Part shown: piece after piece, positions 1-53,101 of the stretch
How the letters are laid out: every line of letters starts with the position of its first letter
Numbering within the stretch: position 1 is the first letter of the stretch
From: Schmidtea polychroa
Lineage: Eukaryota
Length of the DNA stretch: 64,000 nt
NCBI GenBank assembly: GCA_044892525.1
Contig: CM097886.1
Span: 114,576,001 to 114,640,000, forward strand
Direction of reading: 5' to 3'
Position numbers and translations under genes: made by a program
The notes under the pieces: model-generated
What the model saw: only the letters and a program-made list of their open reading frames with translations
What the model was told of the DNA's origin: nothing
Database searches by the model: none

Positions 1-2
1 AA

Positions 3-3000: not shown

Positions 3001-3803
3001 ATTTATTCGAAATCCCGAATCAATTACTAGAACGAGGAATAACCTTCACAAATCATAAGGATGAGCAGTTATTAAAAAAGCGAATTGACACATTCGAAAA
3101 ATCAATATTCCAATTCATTACTCAGGTACGAAATAAATATTGGGGAACGGTAAGTGTGTTATACATGATGGACACGATGAACAACATCCGCGAGAATTAC
3201 CTAGATATTATTCAAATACTTACCGCAGAGGAACGAATCAATAATCCAACCGGAATGAAAATGAGAATAAGGCATGGGAAATCAAGAGAACCAAAGTCGC
3301 AAACGAACCATAAAATCGCAAATAAAGTCATCGAAACAAAATCAATGAGTATAGATCAAGGAGCAATAATATGCAAAGCGAAAGAAGTGTTCTTTGAGGA
3401 AATGCTAGAGCTACCAGATGAAGTAATATTATCAGAAATAATAAAAGCCGTACACACATACGCAAGAGATCAAACCACGGGTTTAGATATCGGGAAAATC
3501 AAAACCTTCTTACCTAGAGCATTTACGATGGTAACAAAGGATTCCAGAACACCTCTACAACAAGCAATACTGGTTGCAAAAGAAAATAGAGCAATAACGA
3601 TCGTGAGAATCCTTAGAGATATGGGCGAGGGAACCAACACGAAAAATGAACAAGGCGAAACGGCCATGATGTATGCAGCTATAACGAAAATACACCCAAA
3701 AACACTCCACATACTACATCAATCAGGATTGAGACTAGACGAAAATCAAACGAAGGGAACTCCACATTGGACTGGGCAACCATACAGCCAAACTTGGAAA
3801 TGA
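3..3803 (+). CDS. pol: Gypsy Pol (RT C-terminal part, RNase H, integrase) fused in frame to ankyrin repeats; 5' incomplete
   Basis: MPFGLTNAPASFQR and YIDD (RT); TDAS...TDHQPL (RNase H); HHCC zinc finger (HDGRLGGH...CITC); D,D35E core (SMDVVGP, TDQG, NGMTERFN); GPY motif. Ankyrin consensus follows: GDTPLH, GYTPLMIAA, KNALHHAI, RTPLQQAI, GETAMMYAA. Confidence 0.95.
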   Translation: MPFGLTNAPASFQRCMNFVTHGIKQCMVYIDDLLIYSATFEQHLEDIRNVFIRLRQWKLKLKPSKCDWSKEKVTFLGHIVSAKGKEPDPRNIEKIKTCPAPKTVTQVQEFLGLCGYYRKFIKNYAGIAKPIQELVKKDISFIWGKEQQEAFETLRDKLIEAPILVHPDFKKPFLLATDASGYAAGAILGQLDDEGKERVIGYYSRTFKKHEKNYSVTEREALAIIQAIKHFRYLLWGHEICITTDHQPLVWLGQHKEASSRLMRWAMQLQEYSPFIKFKAGRANANADCMSRFIFPDLVDPEMQRICLMVAEDLDFCQLRKDQQEDAELKQIIDYVKTGKTEVYAKDQKLKEHMDKHRHRYIIEKDWLLIMDGEKRLMCIPENRRKELLTQYHDGRLGGHMSSKKTLARMKQKYFWPTLTEDVTEWVKNCITCATRKNTGSKWKAPLTPMPVPIEPMTMISMDVVGPLPESDKGNVYILVITDFLTKFPEAFAMPDQKAKTIAKILVEEICCRYGTPKQILTDQGTNFMSEIMSEVTNYFKIAKLRTSPYHPQTNGMTERFNGTLIQMLSNYVDRHQRDWDEYINLCLMAYRMSIHASTKMSPFKLMYGRECNMPMDLEYQPPISQYMEIDDYVTKFKERMQEIWETAGLNIKFYQESYKDLHDRKKNVKQHTFQTGDWVMIETPELIPGTTRKLQRNGKGPYEILFVGETNVRVKLVNNPFTRPIYVNVARCKSIPKTATSQPEGRTLTTRSQTYRMNMMQQLAEPITGRLGIQPSEAEKIVREVKIKLPGWAKDRLDFEILGGLLTMIENYANRERTHPLLRVVKSQWPILFTITDHYGDTPLHKLMKVGNNEQILETIEAFHDCKRSTEQENNQGYTPLMIAANRGKTKDIITALLNTGSKITTQDHDRKNALHHAIEGKSTEAFTSLMELLSYEDNREVGNMYDGLLTAIKEKLTTITGVLITWRNPIKNNYMINLNEAFTRGENTLMREAMRGHHLFEIPNQLLERGITFTNHKDEQLLKKRIDTFEKSIFQFITQVRNKYWGTVSVLYMMDTMNNIRENYLDIIQILTAEERINNPTGMKMRIRHGKSREPKSQTNHKIANKVIETKSMSIDQGAIICKAKEVFFEEMLELPDEVILSEIIKAVHTYARDQTTGLDIGKIKTFLPRAFTMVTKDSRTPLQQAILVAKENRAITIVRILRDMGEGTNTKNEQGETAMMYAAITKIHPKTLHILHQSGLRLDENQTKGTPHWTGQPYSQTWK

Positions 3804-5491
3804 TCAGATTTATTTGCAAAAATGCGACAAAAGAAGAAGTTGAAAATATATGCAAAAACACATCTCAATTTCAATGGAATACGGTACGGAAAAATCTAGA
3901 AGCAATGAAATTGTTATTAACATGGAGAGTACCACAAAATAATAAATATGCGATAAATATAAACGAATTTTACGAAAACGGAGAAAACGCGATGGTAAAG
4001 AATACCCTAACTAAAGGGGGGACACCTAAAATTATCTTAATAGTATTAAATAGAGAAGACCTCAAATTCACGCAAAATCAAAACGAGCAACAACGAATAG
4101 GAAAACATCGTCGTATTCAATTGAGAGAATTAGTCAAGGAATGGAATAGAAAGAGACAAGCTGCAACGGGTAGAAAAGAGTTTGAATTCGAAGCAAAGTT
4201 AGCAAGGAACAGAGTGTTAACAGCATATCGCAGATTATTGAACGATATAAATGTCGAGGACGACATTTTAAACGACAGCGGGGGAGATAAACACGATGAC
4301 AATGACGGAAAAGGCCGAAAGGAGGATAAAGGGAAAAGAGAACCGGAAGAGGATAAACCGGAAAACAAGGATTCGGGTACGAGAAGAGAGGGAAACAGCC
4401 CGGGAACCAAGACCAAAGAGGAGGAAAAACCGAATAATGGAAAACAGAGGGTATGCCTACCGTTCACTAACAAAGAAATAGAAACAAATATGATCTTAAT
4501 GATAATCATGCTAACCATGATAGAGTTAGTAACAGCTCATGGAGGGACGAGAACGATAAAAGAAATCAAAGAAGCGGAGAATCAAGATAGCAAAGAGGAA
4601 GAACTAAAACAAGAAAAGAAAAAGCAAGCACAAGAGCAGCAGTGGGATTTAAAGGAAGAATGGGGCCTAAAGGAAAGGTGCATACTAGGAAGATGTATGT
4701 CTAGAGCGTATCAGAGATTAGTACTGATAAATGAGGACACAGAACCAATAACAGAGGTAAGAATACAAGAAGCATACCGAAATCGAGACGGGAAAAGAAT
4801 AACGAACGTAAAGGGAAAAGAGGTGCACCTAGGAAAAGGAGGTGAAGTAGTAATAACGCAACTCCAACCAAGAAAAGAACACAAAGTCTGTATTTCAAGA
4901 TTAGGACCAGGTGAGAGATGCCATCAATATGTGACGCAGCAGCAGCCCCCAAAGGAATACACGGTTTGTATCTGGAGGAACGAATCAAAAAGGGAATGCC
5001 GACGATACCCGGGGAAAAGAGGGAAGAAAAGAAAAAACAACGACGAAAAGGACGAAGGAGGAAAACACAAGAAAACCGGCGAGGAAGCCCAGGACAACTA
5101 CGTTTCAGAAGAAGAGATGGAAAAAATACAAAAGATGGCAAAGGAGGGTATGAACGAGGAAATAGCAAGAATACGAGAGATGATGAAAGGAAATGGCAAA
5201 AGAGGAAACGAGAAAAGTACAGAAGCGATATCAACATTAACAAACAAGGAAAAACCAGAGAGTATAAGCGTGAAGCAGAAGATGTGGATCAGCGGGATAA
5301 TAATAACAGGGGCATTCCTAATCATAACGGGGGGAACAATAAAAATAATTAAAGATAAACGACATCGCGGAGAACTAGAGATGACCCGAATCAGAAATTT
5401 CCAACATCGAGTGAAACGACCAAGTGATATCAAACAAGAACAGTGGGTGGAGGCCTGGAACGCTCAGCGCCCTCCAAAACCCCGTATATAG
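3746..5491 (+). CDS. Probable frameshifted continuation of Pol-ANK: one more ankyrin repeat, charged linker, internal signal-peptide-like segment, Cys/FN3-like ectodomain, TM helix, short tail
   Basis: The frame begins SNEGNSTLDWATIQPNLEMIRF (ankyrin consensus) where ORF1 loses ankyrin similarity; one extra A at 3742-3745 would join the frames. Hydrophobic MILMIIMLTMIELVTAHG at ~4490-4540; motifs ITQLQPRKEHKVCI and VTQQQPPKEYTVCI; TM MWISGIIITGAFLIITGGTIKII at ~5282-5350. Confidence 0.7.
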   Translation, partial: SNEGNSTLDWATIQPNLEMIRFICKNATKEEVENICKNTSQFQWNTVRKNLEAMKLLLTWRVPQNNKYAININEFYENGENAMVKNTLTKGGTPKIILIVLNREDLKFTQNQNEQQRIGKHRRIQLRELVKEWNRKRQAATGRKEFEFEAKLARNRVLTAYRRLLNDINVEDDILNDSGGDKHDDNDGKGRKEDKGKREPEEDKPENKDSGTRREGNSPGTKTKEEEKPNNGKQRVCLPFTNKEIETNMILMIIMLTMIELVTAHGGTRTIKEIKEAENQDSKEEELKQEKKKQAQEQQWDLKEEWGLKERCILGRCMSRAYQRLVLINEDTEPITEVRIQEAYRNRDGKRITNVKGKEVHLGKGGEVVITQLQPRKEHKVCISRLGPGERCHQYVTQQQPPKEYTVCIWRNESKRECRRYPGKRGKKRKNNDEKDEGGKHKKTGEEAQDNYVSEEEMEKIQKMAKEGMNEEIARIREMMKGNGKRGNEKSTEAISTLTNKEKPESISVKQKMWISGIIITGAFLIITGGTIKIIKDKRHRGELEMTRIRNFQHRVKRPSDIKQEQWVEAWNAQRPPKPRI

Positions 5492-5651
5492 AAAGGGATA
5501 TGACTGTATATAATTGTAAAAAGTAAGTATATCTTATGTATATAACAGTACTATATCTTTATATAAGCGCGGTATCAATATTATAAAATAACGGGGATCA
5601 TAAAATGAAATTAAATTTAGATAAGAGTTGAAAAGTGTATATAAATTAAGA

Positions 5652-5960
5652 ATGGAGCAAGGAAGTAACGAAATGAACCACAACACAGTAACCGAAGAAT
5701 TATGGAAGCAACAATGTGCCGTATTAGCACAATTAGTGTCTAATTTGCAAGAACAAGGATTGACGATGCAAAAGAACCTAATCGAGAGTATGAACAGAGG
5801 ATTTAGTTATTTGAAGATAATTGAAGACCAGAGGTTAAAAATCGAACAAATGCAAAGAGAAATAGAGAGGATAACTCAATATAGCCGAAGACAGGAAATC
5901 GAATTGGACAGAATGATGGAGGAAGCAGAACAGACAGAAATAGAAGACTGGTCAGAATGA
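5652..5960 (+). CDS. Element cargo ORF, short coiled-coil protein of unknown function
   Basis: Open frame with heptad-like E/Q/L pattern, same A-rich codon bias as pol, bounded by AT-rich spacers; ATG preceded by AG. Confidence 0.6.
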   Translation: MEQGSNEMNHNTVTEELWKQQCAVLAQLVSNLQEQGLTMQKNLIESMNRGFSYLKIIEDQRLKIEQMQREIERITQYSRRQEIELDRMMEEAEQTEIEDWSE

Positions 5961-6096
5961 CTAATGAGTAGAGAGGAGGGCGGACACGAAGCCGACTCTT
6001 CCGAACCATAAACCAAACCTAGCTTAAAATGTAAATAATTGTAAATAAAATATCGAACCTGTATCGATAAGAACTATATGTATATATAATTATAGA

Positions 6097-7485
6097 ATGG
6101 ATAAACGACAAAGAGAAGAGTTCAGAGAGATTGTCGAACAAGTCCGAAAATCTACAACGATCAGAATACACAAACATGTTATGTGCGGAATATGTGAAAA
6201 GTTGTTAAAGGAACCTCACCAAACCCAATGTGGATGCAGATTATGTAAGGAATGCATCAGTGAAGCAATAAAGAATAGACCACAGTGGTTCCCGGTGTGT
6301 AAAGAGACACTAATATCGAGTTTAGAAGACACTAACGAGGATAAAGCCGCAGTGAAAGACATGTTAAACACCAATCTGGGATGTAAAAATACCCCATGCG
6401 AATGGAAAGGAGTAATATGGAAAGTAGTGCAACATATGGGAGAATGTATGTACAGAATCGGCCAGTGTGAAAGGTGCCATAAAACCATTCGAGCAAGCGA
6501 AGAAAAAGAGCATCAAAGCCAGTGTGAAGAGAGACTAGAAAGATGTAAACATTGTGGAGAAATAGATACGTGGAAAAATCTCACCAGCAAACATCACAAT
6601 GTCCAAGAGGAAAAGGTATGTGCAGAGTTCAGTGGGGAATGCCCGAACGGATGCGAGGAAGGGAGAATAATAAAAATAGCCCAACACCTAAAGGAATGTG
6701 AAAGGAAAAGAATGACATGTGCACTCGGTAAATGGGGCTGTCAGAAACTACTACACCGAGGAGAGTTACCACATCATTTAGTAGAAAATGCTTCAACCCA
6801 CGCAGAAATGTGGTCGACTGCGTTACAAGAAAGTGAAGAGAAAGTAAAACAAATGGAGATAGAGATAACATCGTTGAAAGCGTTAGTCAAAGAACTACTA
6901 GAAGAAAGAGAAGCGTTCGAAGAAGCCCGAGCTAACATAAAGATGCAAATAAATCGTATAAAAATCAGTAATAATCAGGCCAAGGAGCTACATCGGAAAA
7001 TACAGGAAATAAATCTAAATGAGATAACCCCAACAGCACCTTATATATGGAAGATAACGGGAGTGAAAGAAAGAATACGGAAAGCCAAAACTGGGGAAGA
7101 GACAAGAATAACAAGTCCTGCATTCCATTCTTGGAAAAATGGGTACAAGATGAAAATGAGGATATATACCAACGGAGATGGAGCCGGATTGAATACACAT
7201 TTTTCGATATTTTTTCTATTATGTAAAGGGGAACGTGACGAGGTAATAGAATGGCCATTCCAGGCAAAAATCGATATCACAATGATGAATGACCAAAGCA
7301 TCCACGAACAAAGCTTCAAAACAACGGGAACCCAGCTGTGTTACCGGCGACCTACTGATGAGGAAGGAGCAGCATCAGGAGCACCCACGTTCATCTTACA
7401 GCAGAAGGTGGAAGAGATGACAAAAAACGACACAATATATATAAAAATGACAGTGAGAAGGGAAGGGAAGGGTAGAACGGAGTAA
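6097..7485 (+). CDS. traf: Intronless TRAF-family protein (RING, TRAF zinc fingers, coiled coil, MATH) inside the retrotransposon
   Basis: RING CGIC...CGCRLCKEC...FPVC; several C/H zinc fingers; coiled coil; MATH domain YIWKI...SPAF...GYKMKMRIYTNGDG...THFSIFF...EWPF...GAPTFI. 462 aa, uninterrupted. Confidence 0.95.
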   Translation: MDKRQREEFREIVEQVRKSTTIRIHKHVMCGICEKLLKEPHQTQCGCRLCKECISEAIKNRPQWFPVCKETLISSLEDTNEDKAAVKDMLNTNLGCKNTPCEWKGVIWKVVQHMGECMYRIGQCERCHKTIRASEEKEHQSQCEERLERCKHCGEIDTWKNLTSKHHNVQEEKVCAEFSGECPNGCEEGRIIKIAQHLKECERKRMTCALGKWGCQKLLHRGELPHHLVENASTHAEMWSTALQESEEKVKQMEIEITSLKALVKELLEEREAFEEARANIKMQINRIKISNNQAKELHRKIQEINLNEITPTAPYIWKITGVKERIRKAKTGEETRITSPAFHSWKNGYKMKMRIYTNGDGAGLNTHFSIFFLLCKGERDEVIEWPFQAKIDITMMNDQSIHEQSFKTTGTQLCYRRPTDEEGAASGAPTFILQQKVEEMTKNDTIYIKMTVRREGKGRTE

Positions 7486-7677
7486 CCCATCGAATAATGT
7501 TGTATATAATAACCTGTATATATCGGCGTATATAACCAATAAAATATTATATAATAATAGTATGAAAAACCCTAAATACGAAAACCCAAAAATGATGCGA
7601 AAATTTCCGAAGAACCAGTAACTAATGAATAAAATTTTTCCATAATAAAAAGATTAATCTATATCAATGATTTAGAA

Positions 7678-8733
7678 ATGACACAAGAGAGAATAACCGA
7701 AACTACGATAGCCCCAACCAATACCCACAAGACACAAATTCCCCGAGAATATAACGAAAAATGGAACAAAGTAATGTTCCAACTAACTAACCTCACCCGA
7801 AACTACATCAAAGAAGCTAGAGAAGATGAGAACAGTAAATATCAATGGCTAATCCACAATTTAAGAGAGGAAGCAGAAGCATGTAAAAGAGCATCAAAAT
7901 GGGATTCATTAGAAAATACCCGCCAAGAAGCACACAGCCACTACTTAAAGCAGCTAGTGCAGGAAGCGAGAAAGAGGCTCACTGACGAAAACGCAAAACG
8001 CGAAGCGGAAAAGCAAATAGAAGGAAGGAAAATGATGCATTTATTGGCAGAGGCCAGAAAATGGAAAAGACAAAATAGTGAAATGAAAAAAGAGATGAAA
8101 GAATTGCCCATGAGACTCGGATATGAAAGCGAACAGGGCAAATGGGAGGAAAATTTAATAATAAAGGAAGAACTGAAACGGTTGAGAAAGGTCGCCACCC
8201 GAAGCCAAACATGGCAGATGAAGGCCATGGAGTTCGAGCGACATTTGGCAATGAAATGCGACATAAGAGAGCACGAGAATGCCGCAATGGAGGAGATGAT
8301 AACCCAACAAGCAGGACGGGTTTTGGAATTAGTAAATCAGGTCGTAGAGATGAAACGAGACCTCAATGGATTACAGGGATCACTAGAACAAAGAAACATG
8401 GTCCTAGCTGGAAAAAACAAAAAATTAGAAAACGAGAGGAAAATGTATGCCGAAAATATCAAAAACTTGGAAATAGAAATTGAAAAATGGAAGGGCGACG
8501 AGAAAATCAAGGCCCTAGATAGACAAATAGAGATGAAAGACGAAGAGACAAGGTATCTCACCTACCTGCTCGACGAAGAGCTGAATATCACTCGAGCTCT
8601 AAGAGACGAAGTTAATGAATTGAGAGCTCAAATCCCCCAATATTACCTACCTTATGACCCTATTGCGATACAGTTGCATCCAGCGGTCGATAGTGATGAA
8701 GGTTATGTGGGACAGGAGGAAACCTTCGTATAA
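7678..8733 (+). CDS. Element cargo ORF, long coiled-coil protein
   Basis: 351-aa open frame, E/K/R/L-rich heptads, element-type codon bias, TTTAG just before the ATG. Confidence 0.75.
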   Translation: MTQERITETTIAPTNTHKTQIPREYNEKWNKVMFQLTNLTRNYIKEAREDENSKYQWLIHNLREEAEACKRASKWDSLENTRQEAHSHYLKQLVQEARKRLTDENAKREAEKQIEGRKMMHLLAEARKWKRQNSEMKKEMKELPMRLGYESEQGKWEENLIIKEELKRLRKVATRSQTWQMKAMEFERHLAMKCDIREHENAAMEEMITQQAGRVLELVNQVVEMKRDLNGLQGSLEQRNMVLAGKNKKLENERKMYAENIKNLEIEIEKWKGDEKIKALDRQIEMKDEETRYLTYLLDEELNITRALRDEVNELRAQIPQYYLPYDPIAIQLHPAVDSDEGYVGQEETFV

Positions 8734-8904
8734 AGGTGAATAAAAAGATAAAAACAAAAAAAATCGGGACGTATATCCCAAACAAAAAAAAATTAAAGTA
8801 TTGTAAAAGTATTCAAGGGATTGTAACCCAAACTATTAAATTTTATATAAATGTATAAGTATAAGTCGTACTATAGCGCACCATTAACTGTACATATTAT
8901 AGAT

Positions 8905-9594
8905 ATGAAAATCGAGGAAATGATAGAAATCACGAGTGACGTGGAAGAAGGAGAAATTGTAACAGAAACAACAGAAACACAAACGCTAGAAGCAGAGTTG
9001 CGAGCAGAGAAGTGTGAAAACGAGAGACTGGTAAACAAATACATAGAAGATCGAAAAATAATAAAGATACTAAAGAAAGAATGCAGAGTGCTAGGGGAAG
9101 TAAAAAGAGAAACAGAAGAGGAAAACGAATGGCTGCAAGAACAACGAAAACGAGGGAGAAATTGGGAGAAGATTGCGGAAGAATTATGGCAAGAAAGGGC
9201 CAGTAGAAAGGCAGACGAAGTGATTAGCGATTATTGGAAAACCGAGGCACGGAAACACCAAGAAAGTTTGAAGGAGTTACAACTCCAACTGCACCAAAAA
9301 CAAAAGGAATGCGAGATAATGAAAAGAATGAACAGCAAATACCACGAAATCGACGACGGAGAAGACGAGGAAAGGGGAAATGATTTCTTACAAATACTAA
9401 ACCATAAAAACCTGGAAAGAGCAACGCAGGAAATAAAAGTGTTAAAAGGGAAAATAAAGTTCCTAGAACAACAGATAGACGAAAGAGATAAGCAACTAGA
9501 AGTACTGCCAGAATTGAGAAAACGGGTAATAAAAGCGGAAACGGAAGTGATGAGAGCGTCTCAGAAAGCCCGTAAAAAGAAATCCCGACCATAA
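8905..9594 (+). CDS. Element cargo ORF, coiled-coil protein with basic C-terminus
   Basis: Open frame (track start 8851; ATG 8905 after TATAG preferred), E/K-rich heptads, ends RKKKSRP. Confidence 0.7.
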   Translation: MKIEEMIEITSDVEEGEIVTETTETQTLEAELRAEKCENERLVNKYIEDRKIIKILKKECRVLGEVKRETEEENEWLQEQRKRGRNWEKIAEELWQERASRKADEVISDYWKTEARKHQESLKELQLQLHQKQKECEIMKRMNSKYHEIDDGEDEERGNDFLQILNHKNLERATQEIKVLKGKIKFLEQQIDERDKQLEVLPELRKRVIKAETEVMRASQKARKKKSRP

Positions 9595-9649
9595 ATTAAA
9601 AAGGGATAATTGATGTAAATAAATGTATATAAAATGTTCGCATATTAGT

Positions 9650-10303
9650 ATGTGGCCGGAAGCAACCCTGATGACCCTAATAATGATAACAATAAACGGA
9701 ATGCCCATGCGGCAGTCAGCCCCAAACCCCTGGGAGAACCCCGAGAAACAGCAAAGCCGATTAATCAAACTGAAAAATGAAAGAAAACCCTCCAACAATA
9801 TCCCGAAACAATGCTGGAACAAAGCCGTCTGGCAAAAGACCCAAAGACAACTGAATCTGCAATCTCAAAGAATCGAACAACTTGAAACCCTCCTACATGA
9901 ACAAACCACCCAACAGTCTCTGAAAGAAACCCTCGTAAAGAAAGAAATAAAAGAAAGTCAAGCCCTATTCTATGTTACCATTAGTGAAACCATCCTCATC
10001 TGCGCGCTAATCATCTGGAAGACATATGATATCTATCGAGCATGGAACAGAACCCAACCACTATCCGAGAGACCCAAAAGAAAGAACCTACGATTCCGAA
10101 ACGTACATAAACAAGCAGTACATTGTCAACAACCGGACCCACTCGACCAAATACAACAAAATCTGTCTTCTAATCAAATACCCGTTACAATCCAGCTCTC
10201 CACAGTAACAACTTCAACCAACCCTTCAAGCCAGAATCCCAGAGATCCCCAAAAGGTAGTTAACCGAAACAGTAGTAACATGTCGAACATTGAAATCCCG
10301 TGA
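9650..10303 (+). CDS. Element cargo ORF, predicted type I membrane protein (signal peptide, coiled-coil ectodomain, TM, S/T/P/Q tail)
   Basis: MWPEATLMTLIMITING N-terminus; TM ALFYVTISETILICALIIW; low-complexity tail. Confidence 0.65.
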   Translation: MWPEATLMTLIMITINGMPMRQSAPNPWENPEKQQSRLIKLKNERKPSNNIPKQCWNKAVWQKTQRQLNLQSQRIEQLETLLHEQTTQQSLKETLVKKEIKESQALFYVTISETILICALIIWKTYDIYRAWNRTQPLSERPKRKNLRFRNVHKQAVHCQQPDPLDQIQQNLSSNQIPVTIQLSTVTTSTNPSSQNPRDPQKVVNRNSSNMSNIEIP

Positions 10304-10854
10304 CAGTAATTTGATGTATATAATTCCGGTCACCCTAAGTGGCCACTGCTTGCTTATATTTGTCTTATTATCTGTTTAATTAAAGTATTAGTCAGTTAAT
10401 TTGTTTTTATGTCTGTACGTATTTTGATTGTGGAAGTTTTGTGTTATAACAACAGAGGTATGATTAGAATGTATGTCATTATGCGAATTGCGGGACGCAA
10501 TTTTGATGGGTCCCCGAGTGATTTGTTGGGCTGAATCGAAGGGTAGCTGGGAAATTAGGTCGAATTTAACTAAAGTAAAAATAAGAAATAAAATAAATAG
10601 ATTGACGAATAAAATAGAATAGAACATAAGAAAAACAATAATTAGAAATAAGAATTAAAACAAAAAAAAATATGAAAATAAGAAAAATTAAAATAGGACA
10701 ATAGAATGACAGAAAATAACGCAAAATATAATAAATAATAAGGAAATTAAGGAAAATAAATAAAAACATAATTTTAATAAAGAAAATAAGAAGAAATAAC
10801 TCTAAAACAAGGAAAATAAATTAAATTAATAAAATTAAGCGGTACTCAATTCTG

Positions 10855-10920
10855 ATTGGTCCGCGCAAACAAAAAATTAATATATAAGCAGGCATTAAAA
10901 TCATAATAATTACAGTTAAT
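10855..10920 (+). promoter_or_regulatory. LTR promoter: inverted CCAAT (ATTGG 10855-10859), TATA (TATATAAG 10881-10888), Inr-like CAGTT at ~10913
   Basis: ATTGG and TATATAAG occur in the same order in the LTRs at 24823-24860 (-) and 33575-33600 (-). Confidence 0.75.
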
Positions 10921-10936
10921 CTAACCACCTCAATAG

Positions 10937-10983
10937 GTAAGTAAAGTTTAAAATAATCACAGTTAATCTAACCACCTCAATAG
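10937..10983 (+). other. Predicted 47-nt LTR mini-intron (GTAAGT...CTAAC...ATAG) whose last 25 nt duplicate exon 1
   Basis: Direct repeat ACAGTTAATCTAACCACCTCAATAG at 10912-10936 and 10959-10983; the first copy is followed by GTAAGT. Confidence 0.7.
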
Positions 10984-13215
10984 ATCCATTCTACGACGAA
11001 ACCGCAATTAAACAATCAATCCACAGCAACTCACGAGGACTATTCCGGAATCCAAGAAATTTCAGCTGAATCTAGATAATTTCGAACATTTATTACTTCG
11101 ACACAGTACCCCTTTTCGACTCAGCCTATACCTCTATTAAACACTCGGTAAGGATCTTTTGATTTCATAATTTGAATTTTAAAGTAATAGTTATGCATAT
11201 GATTTAATTATAATTTTAATTTAAAGAACTTGTTTTCTTTTCGTTTGATTTCGAATACTTGGTGTAATTTAACGATTTAGTATTTAACAATAAATGATTT
11301 GCTATGAATGATTGATTTCTAGGAATTATTGACTTTTATGAACTGTTTTAATGAGTTATTATTTAATGCCATTCAAATTTTCGAGAAACGTGGCGTTGAT
11401 ATACTCTAGTGTCATGGTGTGAGGTGCCTTCGGGAGCTCCACCGGTGGGCCTAGGGTATTTCAATCACGCAGCTGATTCGGGCCGTAATGTGGGGGCTTC
11501 CTCACGGGTCCGTCGCTGAAGGTGCGACTAAATCCTATAGGAAAATGTTGCCAGAAAATTGGTAGTCGTATAGCGATGGAAAATAGAGATGTAGGAAGAA
11601 ACGTTCAGAGAGTTTTTATGTATTCGCGCAGTGATTGAGGGTGTCACACTATCGTCTCAAGATATCGTTTCTACTAAGCCCAAATTTCCTCTATCGCTCT
11701 AAAGCTCTATGTAGGTTGCTCATCGAGAGTCGTTCAAATGCTATAGGTGACATATCTTCGATGCTCGTATGTTTCACTCGAAATTTATACCTACTATGTT
11801 TTATGGCCTTCCGTGTTATTATTTTCCTCGTCTACGTGTTCTCTCAAAGATGAAGCTGCAGGGGATTACAGAAAATAAGTAGTCTCGGATGAGCGTTAGA
11901 ATTCCATGAACAAGTTGTCTCGCATAAAATTTTGAATTACGTAAAACGGGTTACTTCAACTATTTTTGAATTGTATAAAATGATTTACTTCAATTGATTT
12001 TAGAATTATATAAAGGGATTAACTTCCACAAATTTTTCTAATTACATAAACCGGTTAGTGCCAAATAATCTCAAGAGTAAAACGAAATCAAATCGAGTCA
12101 AAAAATATATTTTTTTTTACAAACCAATCTAACATGATAATCCTTACCTAGTAAATATAAATTACCCGTGTTTCATGGAGTTGATAATCCAGCGAGGATA
12201 GGTAGGAAATCTCCAAAATATCGGGAACGGATCAATAAACCGCATTTGAGGAGTTGAGAAGTTCCCCCTGGGGGGCAAATTATATCCAACTCTTGCGATA
12301 CCGAGAATCATAATTTTTCCAGCATTTCCGTGAGAATTAGTATGACATCATCATGAGCAAGGAAATGTGAGCATCTGTGCAGTGGGTTGATCGAGATAGT
12401 AGCCAGAGAACATGCCAGCATGTAAACAGTTGAGGGCATCAGTTAGTCATTAGGAGTGGAATTAAGTATGAGAAATAAAAACTTGCATACGTCACCCGTT
12501 TTCAGACACACTACAGTAGCTAATCACGGTGTGTAGATTCACACCGACTTGTACTCATAACAAACCAGACCGGACGTGTCAGCTGGAATTTTTGGGTTAT
12601 CAAATTAAATCACTCGCAGTCATTAGATTCCCACTGGTCGGAACTAATAGCCAACTGTCAGACTGATTTTGTCTACTTAGTAGGATTAATTTAGTTATTA
12701 TCTCATGTTGAATAATTTGTCGCCTATCATAAATAAATAATTAAAAATTTTTTTTTAATGTCTTCCCGTTCATCATAAATGAACTAATTAAGAATAATTT
12801 ATGGATTTCTATTCACCCTAAATAATTAATCTAAAATTAATCGACCTACGTACAGGATACATTCATCGAAACGATTTGTTAGGAAAAGTCGGCAATGTAA
12901 TTCAACTCTCTTCAAACGTTAATTACTAACTTCAAGCGATTTAGATAACCGTAGTTTCCTCGACCTAGAATTCCTCTCACCAGTAGTAATACCTCTCCTT
13001 ACTTGTGCAAAATCGTGCTTGACTGATTTATTTTCTTATAATTAATGACCCAAAGGGAACGAGGACCCATAGCGCAGTTGAATTTCTTTGGCTGATACAC
13101 CCATTCTTGTCTATGAAACCAACTATGATCAGTAAAATATAAATGTGACCAGACGACGACCTTCTAATTGATTTGATTTGTTGTTCATTTCCATCTTTTC
13201 TTGCAGTCACCCAAG

Positions 13216-14064
13216 ATGTTACCCAATTCCAAGACCATTCTCAGACCTTGTTTCTCTTGTTCAGACAAGAATTCAATCATCAAGGATCTGCAGGCCCAAA
13301 TCGGAAAGTACAAGAGAAAAATAGACGAGTTAGAGGGGACATGGTTTAGTCCTACCCAGATGAAAGAGGCTCAGAAGAAGCTGCACCGCAGCGAGCACTG
13401 TCGAGATGCGCTAATTTCCGAAAGTCGGGCGCAGAGAAGCCTAATAAAGGAGCAGTCGGAGGCGCTGCACAAGTTATACGTCCAAGCAGCAACCACTAGG
13501 AGAATCGCGAAGATCCCAATTAATGAAGCCAGTAATCTTTTTCCAGCGCACCACGAGATCTCGGGCGGGCCTTCATCTCCACCTGGGAAGTCCTGCCATG
13601 GGTGCGTGGAGACCGAGCTCTCTCCCAGTGGTCCAGACGTTGTATTCACCGGAACTAATAAAGTGCAGCCAAACACCGCATCGTCCTCAATCGTGCAAAC
13701 CCCAACAGCTTCAAAACCTAAACGTCGGCAACTGTCGCGCGCCGAACGAAAACGAAAGCAACGAGAGCGGGCTTCCATCAAACGGATTCTACCATCAACC
13801 GTCACCCCAGTCGACGGCAACAGCAATCCAATAGTAGTCGATCTAACGACCGGAATCTCAGGGCGAGTCATCTCCGCCGCCGGGGTAACATGGGAAGAAA
13901 ACGCCGCCGAATTCTTTGATTTAAACGAGTTACTCGCCGACTCGGAGTGGGAAAAATGGGAATTGCTCCGTAAACTGGCCTCATCTTCTAGAGAGACCTG
14001 GACATCTTCTGACATCATTGTTTACCCTTGTGTTTTCCCTATTCTTAGGAATTTTGGTATATAA
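13216..14064 (+). CDS. LTR-encoded 282-aa protein (CxxC + coiled coil, Arg/Lys-rich motif, acidic-aromatic C-terminus), predicted spliced
   Basis: Intact ORF. Polypyrimidine-CAG acceptor at 13204-13206, donor GGTAAG at 11147-11152, AATAAA at 14096-14101; all are conserved in the solo LTR. Homologues at 21762-22505 and 30791-31646. Confidence 0.8.
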   Translation: MLPNSKTILRPCFSCSDKNSIIKDLQAQIGKYKRKIDELEGTWFSPTQMKEAQKKLHRSEHCRDALISESRAQRSLIKEQSEALHKLYVQAATTRRIAKIPINEASNLFPAHHEISGGPSSPPGKSCHGCVETELSPSGPDVVFTGTNKVQPNTASSSIVQTPTASKPKRRQLSRAERKRKQRERASIKRILPSTVTPVDGNSNPIVVDLTTGISGRVISAAGVTWEENAAEFFDLNELLADSEWEKWELLRKLASSSRETWTSSDIIVYPCVFPILRNFGI

Positions 14065-14520
14065 GTGTTCAATGTACTTGTATAATAATTCTGACAATAA
14101 ACCATTCTCGTCTATATATGTGTTTTTGTTTATCTTAAAATAGTCGATCTGAAATTGGTGAATAACATTGAGAGTCGTAGAAAATGAGGAGCATTAGTCA
14201 GTTGGCAACCCCAGCTAGGAACCTTGCGATGGGGTGATGGAATGATTAGACGTAAGTCCTTCTATCGGCAGTCAGGGTTGGGAAGTCGAGGCCTCAGTAA
14301 GGAGTAGTCCGAAGGAGCTGGCTCACCTGCTTACTGGCGTCTCGCCGGCATAGCACAGTTCCAACGTGAAGCAATTCACGGGTGCTATGTTGGAATGTAG
14401 GTTATGTGCGGGTCCTGCTTGGCGATGACAAAACGAAGGACGAGCGAAATCGATGTGGGCATTCATCCTCTAGACTGAAAGCTGCACTAAAAGGGGTCAT
14501 CCGAGTAGCTACCCGCAACA

Positions 14521-30499: not shown

Positions 30500-33400
30500 A
30501 GGATAATGTAGAGGTAGTAATATATATTAATAATACGAACAACGAAAAAGATATTATCAGTTAGACTGAGGCCCTACAAGGACTCCTACAACTACCCACT
30601 AATAATATGTATAAACATTTAATTACGTTTTCTTTTCTTCTTTTTATTATTATTAGATTTTTTGGTAGTTTTTTTATGGTCATTTGATATTATAATATTT
30701 TTAGCAGTTACTTTTAAATCGGGTATTTGTTCAAGTTTTTTAACTTTACGGGACTTCTATTAGTCAAATCAGGTCTCAACTTTTTTACGTTTATAAGGGT
30801 ATTAAAAACATACTGCCTGGTTCGATCAGATAGATATATATATTGTAACTTAGTTCAGATACATTCTCTGTACAGAGAATATCGTAGAACATATTCATCA
30901 TTTTTTTCTCTTCAAAAAATTCATCATCATCACGGTTAGTTACTGTTGGCCTTTCGTTGAAGGGTTTTTCTATTTTTGGCATTTGTTCAAGTTTTTTAAT
31001 ATTTTTTAGTCCGTTAATCAAGGCCAATCTAACGTCTCTTTCGTCTGATAGTCGATTATAGTAGTACATCTGTTCACCCGTCATACATGTCGCATACGGT
31101 GGGTTTTCTTTGTTTTTTATAAATACAGTTTGGAAAAAAAGATTATGAAATTCATTACGATCTTCATTGATATAGTTAGGGTTATTATCATCGGAATTGG
31201 AGTCTATATTTAAGTCGTCTTCATCATCAATATCATTTTCGGGTTCAATTAAGCTATCGTCTATGCAACTGGAAACTGGAAATGTTGTTATTTCGTCCAC
31301 CCGATGATAAACCGGGAATACGTTACATTTGTCCAACACTGGGTACTCCCTAATTCGTTGTCTTAATTCAGCTTCCGAATACACTTTATAGAGAGCCTCG
31401 GATTGGGTTTTTAATGGTGAGCCTCTGACATCTGCTCTCTTCCCGACTATCCCTGCAATGCTCTAATCGTAGAATTTTTTGATTACGTTCTTTCATCTGT
31501 GACGAGGAGAACCACGTGGACTCGAGCGTGTCTATACGCTTTTTTATTGCCCCTATGCATTCCTGCAGTTTTTTCATACTCACATTCTTATCGGCACACG
31601 AGATGCAAGGTCTCGGACCGCGAGGTGGCAGATTCGATTCAGACATACTAGAAGAATCACATTTTAATAAATTATTTAACATAAGATCATCACGCTCTAC
31701 TCTTTTGGCTCATCTTTCACAAGTCATTTATATTGCACTATTTAGAATTTACCCCTCAGCATAAAACAATTTAATCATGGGATTTTATTAATAACATTCG
31801 CAAGCTTTGAAGAAATTTAACGAAAATGTTTCGCATCAAAAATGATAAGTAGGGGATCTGATTTTTACTATTAATAAATTAATTTTATTAAAACCATTTA
31901 TTAATTGATAGTTGAATTATTTCAATTAAATCGTACTAGTTCTCTGTTGTAATTTGTTAATTGCATCGACCCGATTTCTTTATGTTTGGGATCCGATTGT
32001 TTATGATGATTGTTTATGAAATGGAAATGGTTGACAGGGCTATCGGAAAAATTCAAGCTGACAAAATCGGTGAATCTGTTTATTTTTATTAATTTTCGAG
32101 ATTTGGAATCTATTTATCATTATCATCATGATGCATCCTCGATTGGTAGTAATCTAGTCCGAGTGGAAATATACGAAATCGTCATCCTGCAGAGGATGTT
32201 TATTCTACCCCAAGTGGAATACATTTACGTAAAAGGTAAACATTGTGATGCTGTCATTGTCATCGCCGTGGTCGGATGATCAACTATCGAATAAACGTGA
32301 GAAACTTTCGCTTGTGCTCGACGAAATTATATATCTAACTTTATGGTGTTGGTATTTGGAAGTAATGAACATGGCTGTTTCATCCAAATGTAATGTAATC
32401 ACTCTCTAGTCGAGTATAGTAGTCAACATCGGATTTTCCACCTATGGGCGATCTGGATCAAATTTAAAGAGTTCGAACAACAAAAAAAATCAGAAGTAGC
32501 ATCTCATGAAAATTTCGCATCATCTCGTTGAGAGTAACAATAATCAGGTTACGAACGGGAATCTATTCTGTTTTACAATTCATTGCCGAAGAGTACATCT
32601 TTGCCGGAAAACAGGAATTTCTCGTCATATATGATACTTTCACTACAATCTACTGCAAAAGTCGTTGCCCGAGTATCGCCATCCATGTGGACAGCTGGGA
32701 ACCACTGACACGAGTGTCAACTATCCCCAACCGACTCCCACGAATAGGTCAAGTATATCTATATTTTATGACAAATAATAATAATTCAAAATTCTCATAT
32801 TCAACCATACTATTCTTATTTATAAATGTCAATTCTATGCTAACTTCCAATACATAAAAATTGTCCAATCCTTGATGACATTCAACGATCACATTCTCTC
32901 CAGACAAAACCATACTCGGATACCATTCATCTCCTACTATTATTTCTCATCTCAAGCATTTCCACATGGCTTTTACAACTGCTGGCATTTCTACTTTCCA
33001 AAATGACCATATCGGCGTTCATAACTCTTCAATTTTCATATTCACTTCCTCAATCACCAGTAGAAGATCTACCATTAAATTTTCTGTGGTCTTCGGCATC
33101 CAAATTCCTTTGTAATTCGATCGGCATGTAAATTCTCACTTTCGTCATGATTCTAATTCATACTCTCCATTCTTTGAATGGTCTACGCATAACTTCCCTG
33201 GCCTAAGGATGTCTCGTGGTTAATTGTCGCTTCTGAGAGAAGGTCATCGCTGAAGCATTTCATATAAACAATGAAAACATTTTTATCTGTTTGCGCGAAG
33301 AGAAAACTCATTCAGTTGATTTCTAACCAATTTATTTAAGCTCATATTTTAGTTACATAATGATATTCTAATAAATAGTAAAATAAAATTAAAAAATATT

Positions 33401-33720
33401 TACATTTTCTCCTTTCTTTGTTCGCTGTGATGCTAAAATTTGAAGGATGATTGTTGAACTGGTTCCACAATTGGATCTGTGTAAGAGTTTGGTAGATTAA
33501 TTAAATTGAAATTTACAATAAGATTTTACCCGTGTAAGAGTTTGGTAGATTAAGGGAATTGATCAAGTGATTTTCTTATATAGTAATTTTTGTCCAATCA
33601 GGACTTAGCTCGTGTGTAATATGGTGTTTTTCTCTTATTTTGTGCCTTTTTAATTGTTTTTCTGAGTTAATTATCTATTTCTTTTGGTTAATTTATTAAA
33701 TAGTTTAATCTTTATTTTTC
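30500..33720 (-). repeat. LTR of a third, more distant giant-gypsy family (5' end deleted, 3' end not resolved)
   Basis: Same order as the 10524 LTR: A-rich U3, CTGATTGG, TATATAAG, duplicated exon/mini-intron followed by ATCC, then TTCTAG-T-ATG of a homologous ORF. Confidence 0.7.
30791..31646 (-). pseudogene. Diverged homologue of the LTR-encoded ORF with one 1-nt frameshift near 31410
   Basis: RPCISCADKN...KKRIDTLESTWFSSSQMKE...EHCRD matches RPCFSCSDKN...KRKIDELEGTWFSPTQMKE...EHCRD. Removing one C gives TIKNQSEALYKVY, matching LIKEQSEALHKLY. The C-terminal half is different and acidic. Confidence 0.8.
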
Positions 33721-33724
33721 CTCC

Positions 33725-35059
33725 CTATATTTTCGAACAATTAAATATATTTGGGTAAAATCCCAATGGGTTCATTATTCTCGTGACTGGTTGGACGAAT
33801 TTATTTCTTCCTTTATAACTAATTTGTAATTCATTTGAACACTTTCTTGGTGGTACTGTTGCTTTTTCTGGCATTTTTGCAAATGTATTTTTGCATGCGT
33901 ATGTGTATAATACTTCTCCAACCATTCTACCGAAATGTCCCTCTGGCAACGGAAGTATTTGCATTGCATTATCGGGATGAGTTATCGCGATAGCTAGTTT
34001 TGTTTTTAATATTTCTTTGTTTAACGAACAATAATTTTGCACCAAATCATAATATATTTTCTGCAATGTGGTTTGTCCTTGATGGAATAGGAAATCCATC
34101 TTGTTGTTTGCGTATAGGTACATTTTTATGTCTTTTGTGGCTACTTTTCCAACGGCTTTGTCTATAGTTTGTTTTGACATAAAAATTCCCGCATAGTTCG
34201 TTTGGTATACTATACTATCGCATTTGGTGACCGGTTTTCCTTTGATGAATCTCATACCAATGTCTCGGTCGTCGGTGATTAGTGCTGTTGGTGTTTTTTG
34301 TGTTTGCAGTTTTTTTATTTCAAATATTGCTTGTGGTGGTCTCCCATTTTTTACTTTTCTTCCACCCCTGTCTTCCGGATCGTTTTCATATATTTCTCCC
34401 TCTACTTCATTTAACACTGCACTTTTTAATAGTTGTAGTCGATATTTTTGCGTATTAGCTTCATAGATGATGGTGGATTGTCCTGTTCTACACACGTTCT
34501 CGGTGGCTCTGCATGATGGATTCGTTTTCATGTGATAGGTGTTTGCATCGAATTGGACTTCGTATTCTTTTATTTCCACTGTATAATACTCGATCACTAC
34601 TATTCCTGTTACTACGTCTCCTTGGAGAGTATATGATCCCCCATTGCATGATCCGTCTCCTGCTACGTAGATACTTTCGATTTTAATCATTCCGCTTTGT
34701 CCGTGTATTGTCACACCATCTCTAATTCGCATTGATCCTGATTTAAAAAGTTCTTTACAATCTTCTCCTTTGGCGTAGACTTTTTCTCTTTTCAACCTTG
34801 GTAGTATAATTGTTGAATACGAGTGTTGTCCGCAATAGTATGCTAGTACTCGTTTTGTTACCAGGCATTCTCTTGCTGGTGTCCTAATAAAGTCGGGTTC
34901 TTGGTATACATGATACGTGACTTTACTTTTCACTTTTTCAAGTTTATTTGGCGATGCCTGTTTACATTCTTCGATGTCTCTTAGAGAATATTTATCTCCA
35001 ATAATTGAGTTGTCACAATCGTAAATCATAAATTCCGTTGCACCGCTTGTACATAACAT
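33725..35059 (-). CDS. env: Envelope-like glycoprotein of the chuvirus G / gB-like class III family; C-terminus and TM lost by deletion
   Basis: Cys/motif pattern YDC...C.V..R.LAYYCGQHS...C...GSCNGGSY...C.....C...VYQTNY...KMDFL...YC.L...KLAIA..HP...G..G.MVGEVLY.YAC...C.NEL.ISY.G..KFVQP.TRI. Confidence 0.75.
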   Translation of the reverse strand: MLCTSGATEFMIYDCDNSIIGDKYSLRDIEECKQASPNKLEKVKSKVTYHVYQEPDFIRTPARECLVTKRVLAYYCGQHSYSTIILPRLKREKVYAKGEDCKELFKSGSMRIRDGVTIHGQSGMIKIESIYVAGDGSCNGGSYTLQGDVVTGIVVIEYYTVEIKEYEVQFDANTYHMKTNPSCRATENVCRTGQSTIIYEANTQKYRLQLLKSAVLNEVEGEIYENDPEDRGGRKVKNGRPPQAIFEIKKLQTQKTPTALITDDRDIGMRFIKGKPVTKCDSIVYQTNYAGIFMSKQTIDKAVGKVATKDIKMYLYANNKMDFLFHQGQTTLQKIYYDLVQNYCSLNKEILKTKLAIAITHPDNAMQILPLPEGHFGRMVGEVLYTYACKNTFAKMPEKATVPPRKCSNELQISYKGRNKFVQPVTRIMNPLGFYPNIFNCSKI

Positions 35060-36960
35060 CTATATCATCATTGTCATCATTAACTAGTTAATTGATGCTT
35101 TTCTGCTGGCTGGGTCTTTCATCGGTAGTTCCCATTCTAATTTGTTTAACAACTTCTTTAGTCTAATTTGCATTGACCTTTCTTGTTCAGTTTTTCGTGG
35201 CGCTTGTATGAGTCTTTTCCAACCTCCAGTGTGGATAATATGTGGGGTTCTATGGTATTTTCAATAATTGTGACTGTTATTTCTACATGATTTATAACTT
35301 GTTTATTCGGCAATTTCCGTGCTGCTAAACCCATCAGATTATACATCAAGTTTGTTATTACCACTAGATGGTGTTCGTCGTCATTTGCATTCATCGTGAT
35401 TTGTTCTACTATTCTTCTTGTTTCTTCCCAATCTGTGGTTTTTGTCTTTTCTTTTATCAGTTTTGGGATTCTTCCTGATATGACGTTCCATAATTGTCTC
35501 GCTTCCATGCTTGCCATTTTTCGTTGCCATAATCTCCTTAATTGCGGGTTGGTTATTATTAACATATCTTTTATCAATTCACGTATCCATTTTTCTCTTC
35601 GTTCGATAGTCGGTTGTGCTTCTTTTAGCTCATATACTATTTTGTCTAATTTTTTTATTCTTATGGCTCCTTGTTCTTGTTTCATCTGTTCTTTGGTTTT
35701 AAATTCTGGTTTTTCTCCTTGTTTCTTGGGTCTTCCTTTGGCTCGTTTTTCCATCGTTGTTCCCATTTCTCTAGTGGTTTCGTAACTTCGGCTTTTCTCG
35801 TTATCTGTTCTCGGTAATGAACTGTCATTGTTTCTCAATCATTCAGTTCATTCATCTATTATTTTATCGTTTTGGCTTTCAGGCGGTATTTTTTTTTGGT
35901 TCTCTTTGCCTCGTTATTGGTTGTTCGTCTGTCTCTGTTTCCGTTGTGTTATCCATTATTTCCTTTATGCTCAATTTATCTGGTTCGTGGTAACTTGTTG
36001 AGGATTGATTCGTTATCCAGATTTCCTCTCCTGTCGGCCACCTTACTAATAATGGTGATCTTTCTCCTACTTCTTCACTATCATCTAGTATGATTTCCTC
36101 GATTTCGTCGGTCTCATTTGATTTGCTCGGTTCTTTGTCTGGGCTTGGTGTACTCAAACTTCCTTTCGTTGGTTTGCTGCTTTTATTTTTCCTTTTTATC
36201 GGTTTTCCCAATGTTTCTGCCATGGTCAGTTCATTAACTTTCTCCAAACTCATGACTGTTGTCCAATGATTGTCCTTCTAATTGTAAGTGAAACGGAGTC
36301 TCATGTGCTAATTTTTGTTTTAATTCTCTAATTTTTGTCGTTGGGTGCACTTCTACTTCCTCATATGTTTTGTCTGGATATTTGATTCGAATTTTGTATC
36401 TTTCTTGAGTGTCTTGCGCCCATTCCTGATTTCTCCATTTTCTAATAACTTGGTCAAGTTGTTCGGATACCATTCGTTGTATAGTCGATATGCTTCTCTC
36501 TCTTTTACTATTCCTCTCAGATTTTGAATATTCTCTGCTGCTTTTAATATAAAGTTGGCCAAGGCTATCACTTATCGTTTCTGATTTTTTGTCCCTGCAG
36601 ATAAGATATCGCTTAGTTGTTTACATCTTTCTTTTTCTGCCCTTTATCTTGCTACTTTTGCTTCCTCGCTTTCTATGTCGGCCTATTCGCTTTCCTTTTT
36701 CCTCATCGCGTGTATGTGTCTCGTTTCGGTATTGCTTTCCGACGTGACGTCCGTCTCACTCTTCTCCTCGGATGATTGTTCTGTCTCTGCTTCTTCGTAT
36801 TCCGGTGGTTCGTCTTCTTCCTCTGCTTGGCCGATTTTTGTCTCTTCGATTTTCGTTTCTGTGATAATTCCTTTTTTGATTTCCCACTCTTTTCTTTCTA
36901 CATTCCAGACTCTTTCCCATGGCGTCCATCTACACTGACTGGTGTCATCATTAATATTTG
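35060..36960 (-). pseudogene. Decayed internal ORFs of the third element, including a ubiquitin-like segment (36234-36473) and a probable polyprotein leading into the env signal peptide
   Basis: Same A-rich coding bias as the giant element. KIRIKYPDKTYEEVEVHPTTKIRELKQKL...LQLEGQSLDN is Ubl-like. In-frame TAGs at 35060-35062 and 35084-35086 interrupt a hydrophobic stretch. Confidence 0.55.
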
Positions 36961-44799: not shown

Positions 44800-46150
44800 G
44801 ATTTAATTATAAGCTAACGCCAATCAAACATTCTTTTCACGATTAATTTCGACAGTTTTCCTGTCATCATCAGGTGGGATATAATAACTCATTAAATTAA
44901 GGATTTTAAACAAATTTATTAATTATATATAAAACATTTTTTTATTTTATAAAAAAAATATTATTTTTTTTTAAATTTTAACATTTAAAATTTAATTTAA
45001 TAATTTAAAAATTTTTTATTAATTATTTAATTTAATACAACAATCAATACATACAAAATAAAAAACCTATTAAAAAACTTATTTAAAAACACTCAAAACA
45101 CAAGTATTTACTGCATTCTGCACATTAATTTTTGGATTCAATGATTTTATCAACAACGCCTCACAAATCACACGTTCCCAATAATTATCGAAATTTTTTA
45201 ATAAAATTTTAAAATCAGACATACCTATTTTAATCTTACAGCCCTTATTGTGCTCACCAATATGAGTTAAAGTCTTCGGTCTATAATATTCTCGAGCTCG
45301 AATACAGAGATGTCTGGAAGTCTTTCCAATGTATGTGGCATTACACCCATTACATGTAAACTGATAAACGAGATCGGAACACAATTCGACCGGAGTTTTT
45401 GACTTATTAATAAACATATTGCGTACTTTCCATGAAGTTGACACTATCCTATAGTTTAAATTCCCTAACAGCTTTCTTATCTTCACTTTATAATCCTTAA
45501 AACCTTCTGAGTACAGTAATACTAACATAAATTTAGGCTCATCATCATTGCTCACACTATTTAATTTATTTAACTCATCAGACTCACACATCTCAACAAG
45601 ATCACACCCAGATTTTCTCAAACATGGATCCTTAGGATTTTTAATAAATTTGTCAACAGTCTCTTTCACCATAATTACTAAAAAGGATTTTGAATAACCG
45701 TTCTTCATTAACAATTCAACCAATATGTCAACACTTTTTACTGAATTTTTAAAAGTAGAAGACAAAGACCATGCACGATAAATCAACCCCTTCACCATAT
45801 TTCTTTTATACTTGAATTCACAAAAACTTTCGGAAGAAGTATAGAGACCAGTATCAGTTGGTTTTCTATAAATCTCTGTCTCATAGTGTTTCTCTTTGCG
45901 TTGTATTAACAGATCCAAGAAAGCAAGCGATGATTTTTTCTCCGATTTACATGTGAATACAATGTTTTTATGTAGACTATTCATATAATGCAAAAACGGG
46001 TCAACATGCCTCTGATTTTCAAATATAAGAAAAATATCATCCACATACCGTTTATAAACAGTGGGTTTTATACCTTGGAAAGATGCAATTTTCTTTTCTA
46101 AGCTTGTTAAAAAATTGAAGCCATCGTTGGTGCTAAAGGAGAATATTATT
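44800..46150 (-). mobile_element. Penelope-like element 3' part (RT C-terminus, GIY-YIG endonuclease, terminal repeat); truncated by pogo insertion
   Basis: SPLAPTMA...RYVDDIF...FLDL...YRKPTDTG (PLE RT); VYQFTCNGCNATYIGKTSR..HIGEH (GIY-YIG). ORF 45079-46044. Confidence 0.92.
44838..44876 (-). ncRNA. Minimal hammerhead ribozyme in the Penelope 3' repeat
   Basis: CAC-CUGAUGA-U-GACAG(GAAAA)CUGUC-GAA-AUUAAU-C-GUG. Confidence 0.85.
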
Positions 46151-46157
46151 ATAATTA

Positions 46158-53052: not shown

Positions 53053-53101
53053 GTAAAATTGATAATTTATCACAATTCTCTGGTCTGATATCAATGTTCA
53101 G

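Follow-up and report, generated by a model that had tools for sequence, protein, structure and literature searches.

Probable relic of a giant Burro-like Ty3/gypsy element encoding a predicted class III fusion glycoprotein in the planarian Schmidtea polychroa

The window analysed here is a stretch of 64,000 nucleotides from Schmidtea polychroa (assembly GCA_044892525.1, contig CM097886.1, positions 114,576,001 to 114,640,000 of the forward strand). Its central feature is an open reading frame (ORF) of 444 codons on the reverse strand, which forms part of a longer polyprotein gene remnant and abuts the remnant of a long terminal repeat (LTR); the left part of the window is occupied by a second and younger copy from this element group on the forward strand. 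In window coordinates, the features are:

1..14520, forward strand: 3′ part of the younger copy (the TRAF element), with reverse transcriptase (RT), RNase H, integrase, ankyrins, TRAF ORF, and 3′ LTR
6049..7485, forward strand: TRAF-like accessory ORF with RING and MATH regions (Pfam TRAF-mep_MATH, E 3.5e-25)
31265..33735, reverse strand: LTR remnant, 72-93% identical to sibling LTRs and ending at about 31265
31271..31613, reverse strand: frameshifted remnant of an LTR-internal ORF, matching window positions 13177-14064
33732..33735, reverse strand: env/U3 deletion joint, where 3-4 bases fit both sides and about 13 kb have been lost
33725..35059, reverse strand: 444-aa env ORF, the N-terminal 70% of a predicted class III (gB/chuvirus-G type) env segment
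33732..36943, reverse strand: polyprotein gene remnant (ubiquitin-like, Bcl-2-like, signal-like, env), truncated at both ends
35060..35110, reverse strand: signal-like hydrophobic segment ahead of env, broken by in-frame stops
35158..35838, reverse strand: Bcl-2-like region, its frame disrupted at the end of the region, 84-89% identical in amino acids to the region ahead of env at locus L014
36234..36620, reverse strand: ubiquitin-like remnant (Pfam ubiquitin, E 0.0065, below cut-off)

The env ORF matches the Pfam family PF24664 (Monjiviricetes_fusion) with an E value of 1e-37 and 129.9 bits (cut-off 27), and is 77% identical in amino acids to the 632-aa env segment of a young family in the same genome. 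It lacks the C-terminal ectodomain and the transmembrane anchor, its first codon is an internal Met, and its stop codon is supplied by LTR sequence. For structural comparison we used the ectodomain of a relative, modelled on an 18-row alignment of natural sequences (mean pLDDT 60; residues 30-300 mostly good, the C-terminal third past residue 420 poor); a single-sequence env model reached a pLDDT of 35 and was kept out of the structure searches. With the relative's model, Foldseek placed herpesvirus gB at the top of the PDB matches (E 1e-10) and chu-, qin-, and xinmo-like glycoproteins at the top of the viral models (E 5e-28 to about 1e-27, 15-21% identity), while VIA-align gave its best Z score, 8.3, to HSV-1 gB (rmsd 4.8 over 223 residues) and filled its top 12 rows without exception with class III fusogens or parts thereof. 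Global TM-scores are low (0.2-0.4) because of the poorly modelled part of the ectodomain, so that the predicted structure supports class III membership but not the packing of the domains. Judged by its sequence, the window ORF is a genuine class III fusogen segment, closest to the G glycoproteins of chu-like viruses, in agreement with the earlier note, which had called it a chuvirus-like class III fusion glycoprotein. Sequence searches of solved structures were uninformative for both env and the Bcl-2-like region; a protein-database search at E 0.001 (exact-word seeds, limited length) returned no relative, which has no bearing on rarity; and none of 89 candidate stretches in a viral-contig search was confirmed.

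Relatives abound in the genome itself. An env protein search of the 781-Mb assembly, in which 95 of 2,539 candidates were scored, found at least 94 other matches at 75-77% identity; 40 of the 94 other matches listed lie in open frames of at least 4,700 aa, and in one of these frames the matching stretch contains a flagged stop. One natural relative, read by us as six individual tiles, measures 30.6 kb between its outer LTR ends, carries 4.2-kb LTRs that are 99.9% alike, and contains a 4,811-aa frame whose gag has CCHC knuckles and whose env matches Pfam at E 4e-72. Related copies share this plan, a single frame of about 4,800 codons with LTRs of about 4 kb, in which Gag, ubiquitin-like, and Bcl-2-like regions, a hydrophobic segment, the predicted class III glycoprotein, and a transmembrane helix (clear in the relatives, hydropathy 2.53) are followed by protease, RT, RNase H, integrase, and ankyrins (Ank_2 E 4e-18 in a relative's polyprotein), and then by a separate TRAF ORF (E 8e-25); BIR and dUTPase gave no Pfam match in the element scans. 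Env lies between gag and pol in loci L013-L015, and protease or RT lies 3′ of env in all five close relatives whose flanks were retrieved (L014, L017, L034, L039, and L068). The five env families have an (A/I)YDC start in common. Both relatives that have both ends show highly similar LTR pairs (99.9% and 99.7%), 4-bp duplications, and a common primer-site motif.

Because window positions 33732-36943 match the long frame of the 30.6-kb copy, the 444-aa ORF is best described as a slice of a polyprotein gene. Against locus L014 the same interval is 75% identical in nucleotides over 3,264 columns, and its 5′ edge lies at 36943. The accessory regions are faint: at the expected place ahead of env, Pfam ubiquitin matches have E values of 0.0065 and 0.15, both below cut-off, and Pfam Bcl-2 matches in the relatives, at E 0.035 for the L014 region ahead of env and 0.0031 for a second family, are likewise below cut-off.

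The adjacency of env and LTR in the window copy was produced by deletion, the normal site of env being between gag and protease. Specifically, i) env homology stops at 33732 in all three relatives aligned over the joint, and homology to the LTR sets in at 33735-33734; the two overlap by 3-4 bases, which probably served as the microhomology for the deletion; ii) the loss of about 13 kb is reckoned as the 12,755 bp between equivalent points in L014-L015 plus the missing piece of U3, a size borrowed from another subfamily; iii) about 360-375 bp of U3 are gone from the LTR remnant, as six of seven siblings keep the LTR start and the seventh is truncated there, and the element's 3′ internal sequence was found at none of the seven within the 450 bases examined; and iv) among genomic DNA matches (44 listed; 40 of 849 candidates scored), both sides of the joint are found in the window alone. 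The LTR-internal ORF of the remnant matches the LTR ORF of the TRAF element (tblastx E 1e-26, 59% amino acid identity; tblastn E 1e-23), and sibling LTRs share the terminal motif of that element's LTR; the DNA match of the remnant to the TRAF element's LTR (10524-14520) is weak and AT-rich (58-65%). The A content of the sense strand is 41.7% both in the window env and in the internal region of the TRAF element. The earlier note had held that env was joined by deletion, in the same orientation and with the same base bias, to the U3 of an LTR related to the TRAF-carrying family, and on these points our analysis bears it out.

Could the joint instead bring together an env piece and an LTR from two insertions, or be an assembly error? 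The region is rich in nested elements and the remnant is truncated at its two outer ends, as two insertions joined later might leave it, but env and LTR have the same orientation, and L038-L039, a close env relative of the window copy (82% nucleotide identity), joins an env and an LTR of these very subtypes. Contigs cross the joint in three of four runs (X1, X5, and X6; two studies, one possibly the assembly's source), and these spanning contigs from two studies rule out an assembly error. We consider this pair of explanations quite unlikely, and infer that a single original copy gave rise to both env and LTR. At L038-L039, whose LTR is of the same subtype as that of the window copy, env is linked to protease, RT, RNase H, and a partial integrase; the linkage of such an env with gypsy pol and this LTR subtype, which the earlier note proposed to test in intact copies, is seen there. 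Among the matches listed, none was a complete element of the subfamily to which the window copy belongs.

The younger element at 1-14520 bears on what sort of lineage the window copy belongs to. Window positions 1-10535 match the 30.6-kb reference copy from RT onward; the 5′ LTR lies left of the window, the LTR pair is 99.7% identical, and a 4-bp target duplication is present. Its own env, frameshifted and 84-93% identical in amino acids to that of L014, is found 1.7-3.5 kb beyond the left end of the window (locus L017), and the TRAF-carrying and env-carrying families are therefore one and the same. This removes the proposal that an env-bearing sister lineage accompanied an env-less TRAF family. 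A separate enveloped lineage with env at its 3′ end beside the LTR might still draw on the membership of the window copy in a distinct older subfamily, 75% identical in nucleotides to the young family and with a diverged LTR, but in its closest relatives env is followed by an anchor, protease, and RT rather than by an LTR; with env also present in the TRAF element of this very window, we regard such a lineage as very unlikely.

The polyprotein remnant is heavily decayed. Its homology is spread over three frames, and tblastn aligns it as three pieces that hold 2, 3, and 7 stops, 12 altogether; in-frame stops stand 1 and 9 codons ahead of the env ORF Met, within a hydrophobic segment that is open in four env families (this signal-like segment falls below the hydropathy cut-off of 1.6 over 19 residues, and the env anchor alone lies above it); and in env itself one conserved cysteine is substituted, a five-codon gap is present, and the final 30% with the anchor is lost. 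In runs X5 and X6, from the other study, an allele with a +1 frameshift at codon 236 is present at full contig depth, and run X1 contains an additional deletion form. No 5′ LTR is left upstream, and the missing 5′ part turned up neither in the rest of the window nor in the adjoining 19 kb on the right. The window copy is a dead element, given its stops and frameshifts, the lost cysteine, the lost anchor, and the codon-236 allele. The sole counterpoint is that the assembly shows no stop within its 444 codons. In run X7, which is RNA by guess only, two short pieces are covered, with no bearing on expression.

That open frame, set against the many stops in the 1.9 kb upstream of it, raises the question of whether the host has retained a truncated, anchor-less env to serve in soluble form as a decoy or restriction factor against the element's own family, and solo chuvirus-like glycoproteins have been proposed to be domesticated in mosquitoes (PMC7642597). 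The features just described argue the other way: the stop ahead of the Met disrupts the signal-like segment, a conserved cysteine is lost, the frameshift allele and the extra deletion form occur in the runs named, and there is no 5′ LTR upstream. We think retention by the host highly improbable.

By its Pfam families, the gag-pol linked to env in the relatives is of the Ty3/gypsy kind, with matches to Retrotrans_gag, RVP, RVT_1, RT_RNaseH, Integrase_H2C2, and rve (Ty3_capsid, at E 6e-5, is below cut-off). A Pfam scan of the linked gag-pol for Peptidase_A17, DUF1759, and DUF5641, which we take to be marker families of BEL/Pao elements, gave no match. The association with gypsy pol suggested by the earlier note is therefore upheld, and the possibility it raised against itself, that other env copies might belong to BEL/Pao pol or to free viral insertions, was looked for and not encountered. 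Although the best structural matches are glycoproteins of chu-like viruses (E about 1e-27, 18-21% identity), a free endogenous chuvirus element is contradicted by the continuity of env with 1.9 kb of polyprotein homology, and an Anakin-like BEL/Pao env by the Ty3/gypsy families of the linked gag and pol and the lack of a match to the BEL/Pao markers, so that we give this explanation next to no chance.

We conclude that the window ORF is very probably the truncated env of a dead, giant, Burro-like Ty3/gypsy copy that lost about 13 kb, so that env now abuts the LTR. By sequence divergence the copy represents an older, distinct subfamily of an already published element group. The locus itself is of little weight, being the decayed and partly deleted remnant of a type of element already in the literature. 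More weight attaches to the family, whose env protein stays nearly constant while its young copies diverge at silent positions.

In six of seven pairings env dN/dS lies between 0.036 and 0.115, and the seventh is saturated; these values are rough, dS being high and near saturation between subfamilies. Among eight young copies, 91 variable env codons are silent and 5 are replacing, in a set picked by protein score, a choice that favors few amino acid changes, and from which L003 and L030 (frame breaks or partial cover) were excluded. These codon comparisons indicate strong purifying selection on env. An open env frame could be explained by the pol that lies downstream of it, but the conservation of env residues points to a working env, and the env of the family is probably still functional.

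How might such an env work from inside a polyprotein? In working copies, the hydrophobic segment that follows the Bcl-2-like domain probably acts as an internal signal directing env into the ER lumen, and the helix after env would return the chain to the cytosol, leaving Gag and Pol inside and env facing outward. Signal peptidase and the element's own protease would then separate the parts of the polyprotein, giving equimolar Gag, env, and Pol, and trimeric env would mediate the fusion of a budded particle to a further cell. This scheme follows the general behavior of membrane polyproteins; and because Bcl-2 proteins carry a C-terminal tail anchor at just this place, the hydrophobic segment may double as anchor and signal. 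A search of the literature for a shared anchor and signal, or for particles of planarian elements, found none; most subscription journals and bioRxiv supplements lay outside that search. We offer only tentatively, as an idea we believe more apt to be wrong than right, and for which the purifying selection on env speaks only indirectly, that the young relatives are a still-infectious enveloped planarian virus whose polyprotein threads through the ER, and in which a shared Bcl-2 anchor and env signal couples spread to the blocking of cell death. Spread from cell to cell would give the element a route between adult stem cells and to the germ line.

We wish to stress that the question of entry concerns the element family and not the window relic, which is incapable of any of these steps.

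Placement of env between gag and pol has already been published for planarian Burro elements (PMC6431247 and PMC13524379). The former describes the planarian Burro/GYPSM1 elements as gypsy-like LTR retrotransposons of more than 30 kb with a single ORF near 4,800-5,100 aa, in which env lies in frame between BCL2 and protease and matches mononegavirus fusion glycoproteins. The elements described here resemble them in size (30.6 kb and 4,811 aa), in the CCHC knuckles of Gag, and in the ankyrins and MATH/TRAF, and the candidate ubiquitin-like and BCL2-like regions, though below the Pfam cut-offs, stand at the corresponding places. They differ in that i) the TRAF ORF stands on its own after the polyprotein stop, whereas by the same account it is inside ORF1 in Burro1 and upstream in a Dugesia tigrina element; ii) the BIR and dUTPase-like motifs reported for Burro by other, partly more sensitive methods, have no Pfam match here; iii) Burro env was also likened there to gypsy Env, whereas a class III fold is predicted here; and iv) the window copy is a deleted relic. 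We therefore rejected Burro1 (GYPSM1) in the narrow sense, the TRAF ORF being separate from the polyprotein.

Outside planarians the nearest parallel is Anakin, mosquito BEL/Pao elements with a chuvirus glycoprotein (PMC7642597); these too are retroelements with a chuvirus-like class III glycoprotein, but their backbone is an insect BEL/Pao one, whereas the elements here are built on Ty3/gypsy and place env within the polyprotein. The ectodomain fold predicted for the env described here is shared with class III fusogens, among them the G proteins of chu-, qin-, and xinmo-like viruses, herpesvirus gB, rhabdovirus G, and GP64, at only 8-21% identity, and a recent chuvirus capture is not implied.

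The closest comparison is with the errantiviruses of the HSV/gB type that PMC13524379 describes from Platyhelminthes, with the order GAG-ENV-POL and with Smed_errantivirus_1 to 6 in Schmidtea; that text argues for an ancient association of the gB-type env and states that the entry mechanism is unknown. Shared features are the Ty3/gypsy pol, a gB-type env between gag and pol, and many near-identical copies. Compared by eye with these six, the window env is collinear with, and nearest to, Smed_errantivirus_5, while a second family in our genome (L056) is almost letter-for-letter Smed_errantivirus_2. One intact copy is listed there for Smed_errantivirus_5, as against dozens of long open frames for its relative here, and the window subfamily itself is, again by eye, identical to none of the six.

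At least five env-bearing families (L014, L053, L078, L099, and L108) coexist in this genome, with env segments 35-83% alike; in all four families for which the upstream frame was read, a hydrophobic segment lies upstream of env, and the motif ahead of env in the same four is presumably Bcl-2 BH2-like. Among eight young copies of the giant element (L002 and L004-L010), chosen by protein score, env differs at up to 56 of 1,896 bases while the protein is nearly identical, the variable codons comprising 91 silent as against 5 replacing.

Related frames occur in two metagenome contigs. In one (L073:440-8521), a single gag-env-pol frame of 2,693 aa terminates in signal-like and membrane-like segments, and matches to the Bcl-2-like cargo are absent from this frame; in the other, a single in-frame stop (L072:3058-3060) lies between the Gag/ubiquitin-like frame and the signal-like segment ahead of env, and could be either a mutation or a read-through site. 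In the giant element itself, the end of the polyprotein, past the ankyrins (window 3650-5491 (+); L015:2-3415 in the reference copy), consists of a signal-like segment (hydropathy 1.66) and a transmembrane-like helix (1.74), each the second of its kind in the chain; it might constitute a second surface protein.

Inside the LTRs sits an ORF, about 250-295 aa long, whose protein is kept across LTR subtypes despite DNA that is barely alignable; a Pfam search with this ORF gave no convincing match. It lies at three places in the window:

13177-14064, plus strand: LTR-embedded ORF
21687-22544, minus strand: LTR-embedded ORF
31271-31613, minus strand: LTR-embedded ORF, a frameshifted remnant

The full-length LTR at 21196-25184 (-) is 78% alike to the LTR at 10524-14520 and, since no internal sequence adjoins it, is likely a solo LTR. 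The window also holds:

18611-19231 and 53066-53656, plus strand: further pieces related to TRAF (RING plus TRAF zinc finger; MATH) that lie apart from the giant elements
14944-17804, 45079-47354, and 57962-59568, minus strand: decayed pieces of ordinary gypsy pol; an ORF with a weak GIY-YIG match; a DDE_1 transposase ORF

As for the element ends, the reference copy (L013) encodes a RING ORF of 165 aa between the 5′ LTR and gag (L013:4721-5218; zf-C3HC4_3 match, E 3e-8); in this copy and at locus L018, target duplications measure 4 bp, and about 7-8 bases 3′ of the 5′ LTR (near position 4266 in L013) is a primer-binding site that probably resembles the one for tRNA-Pro.
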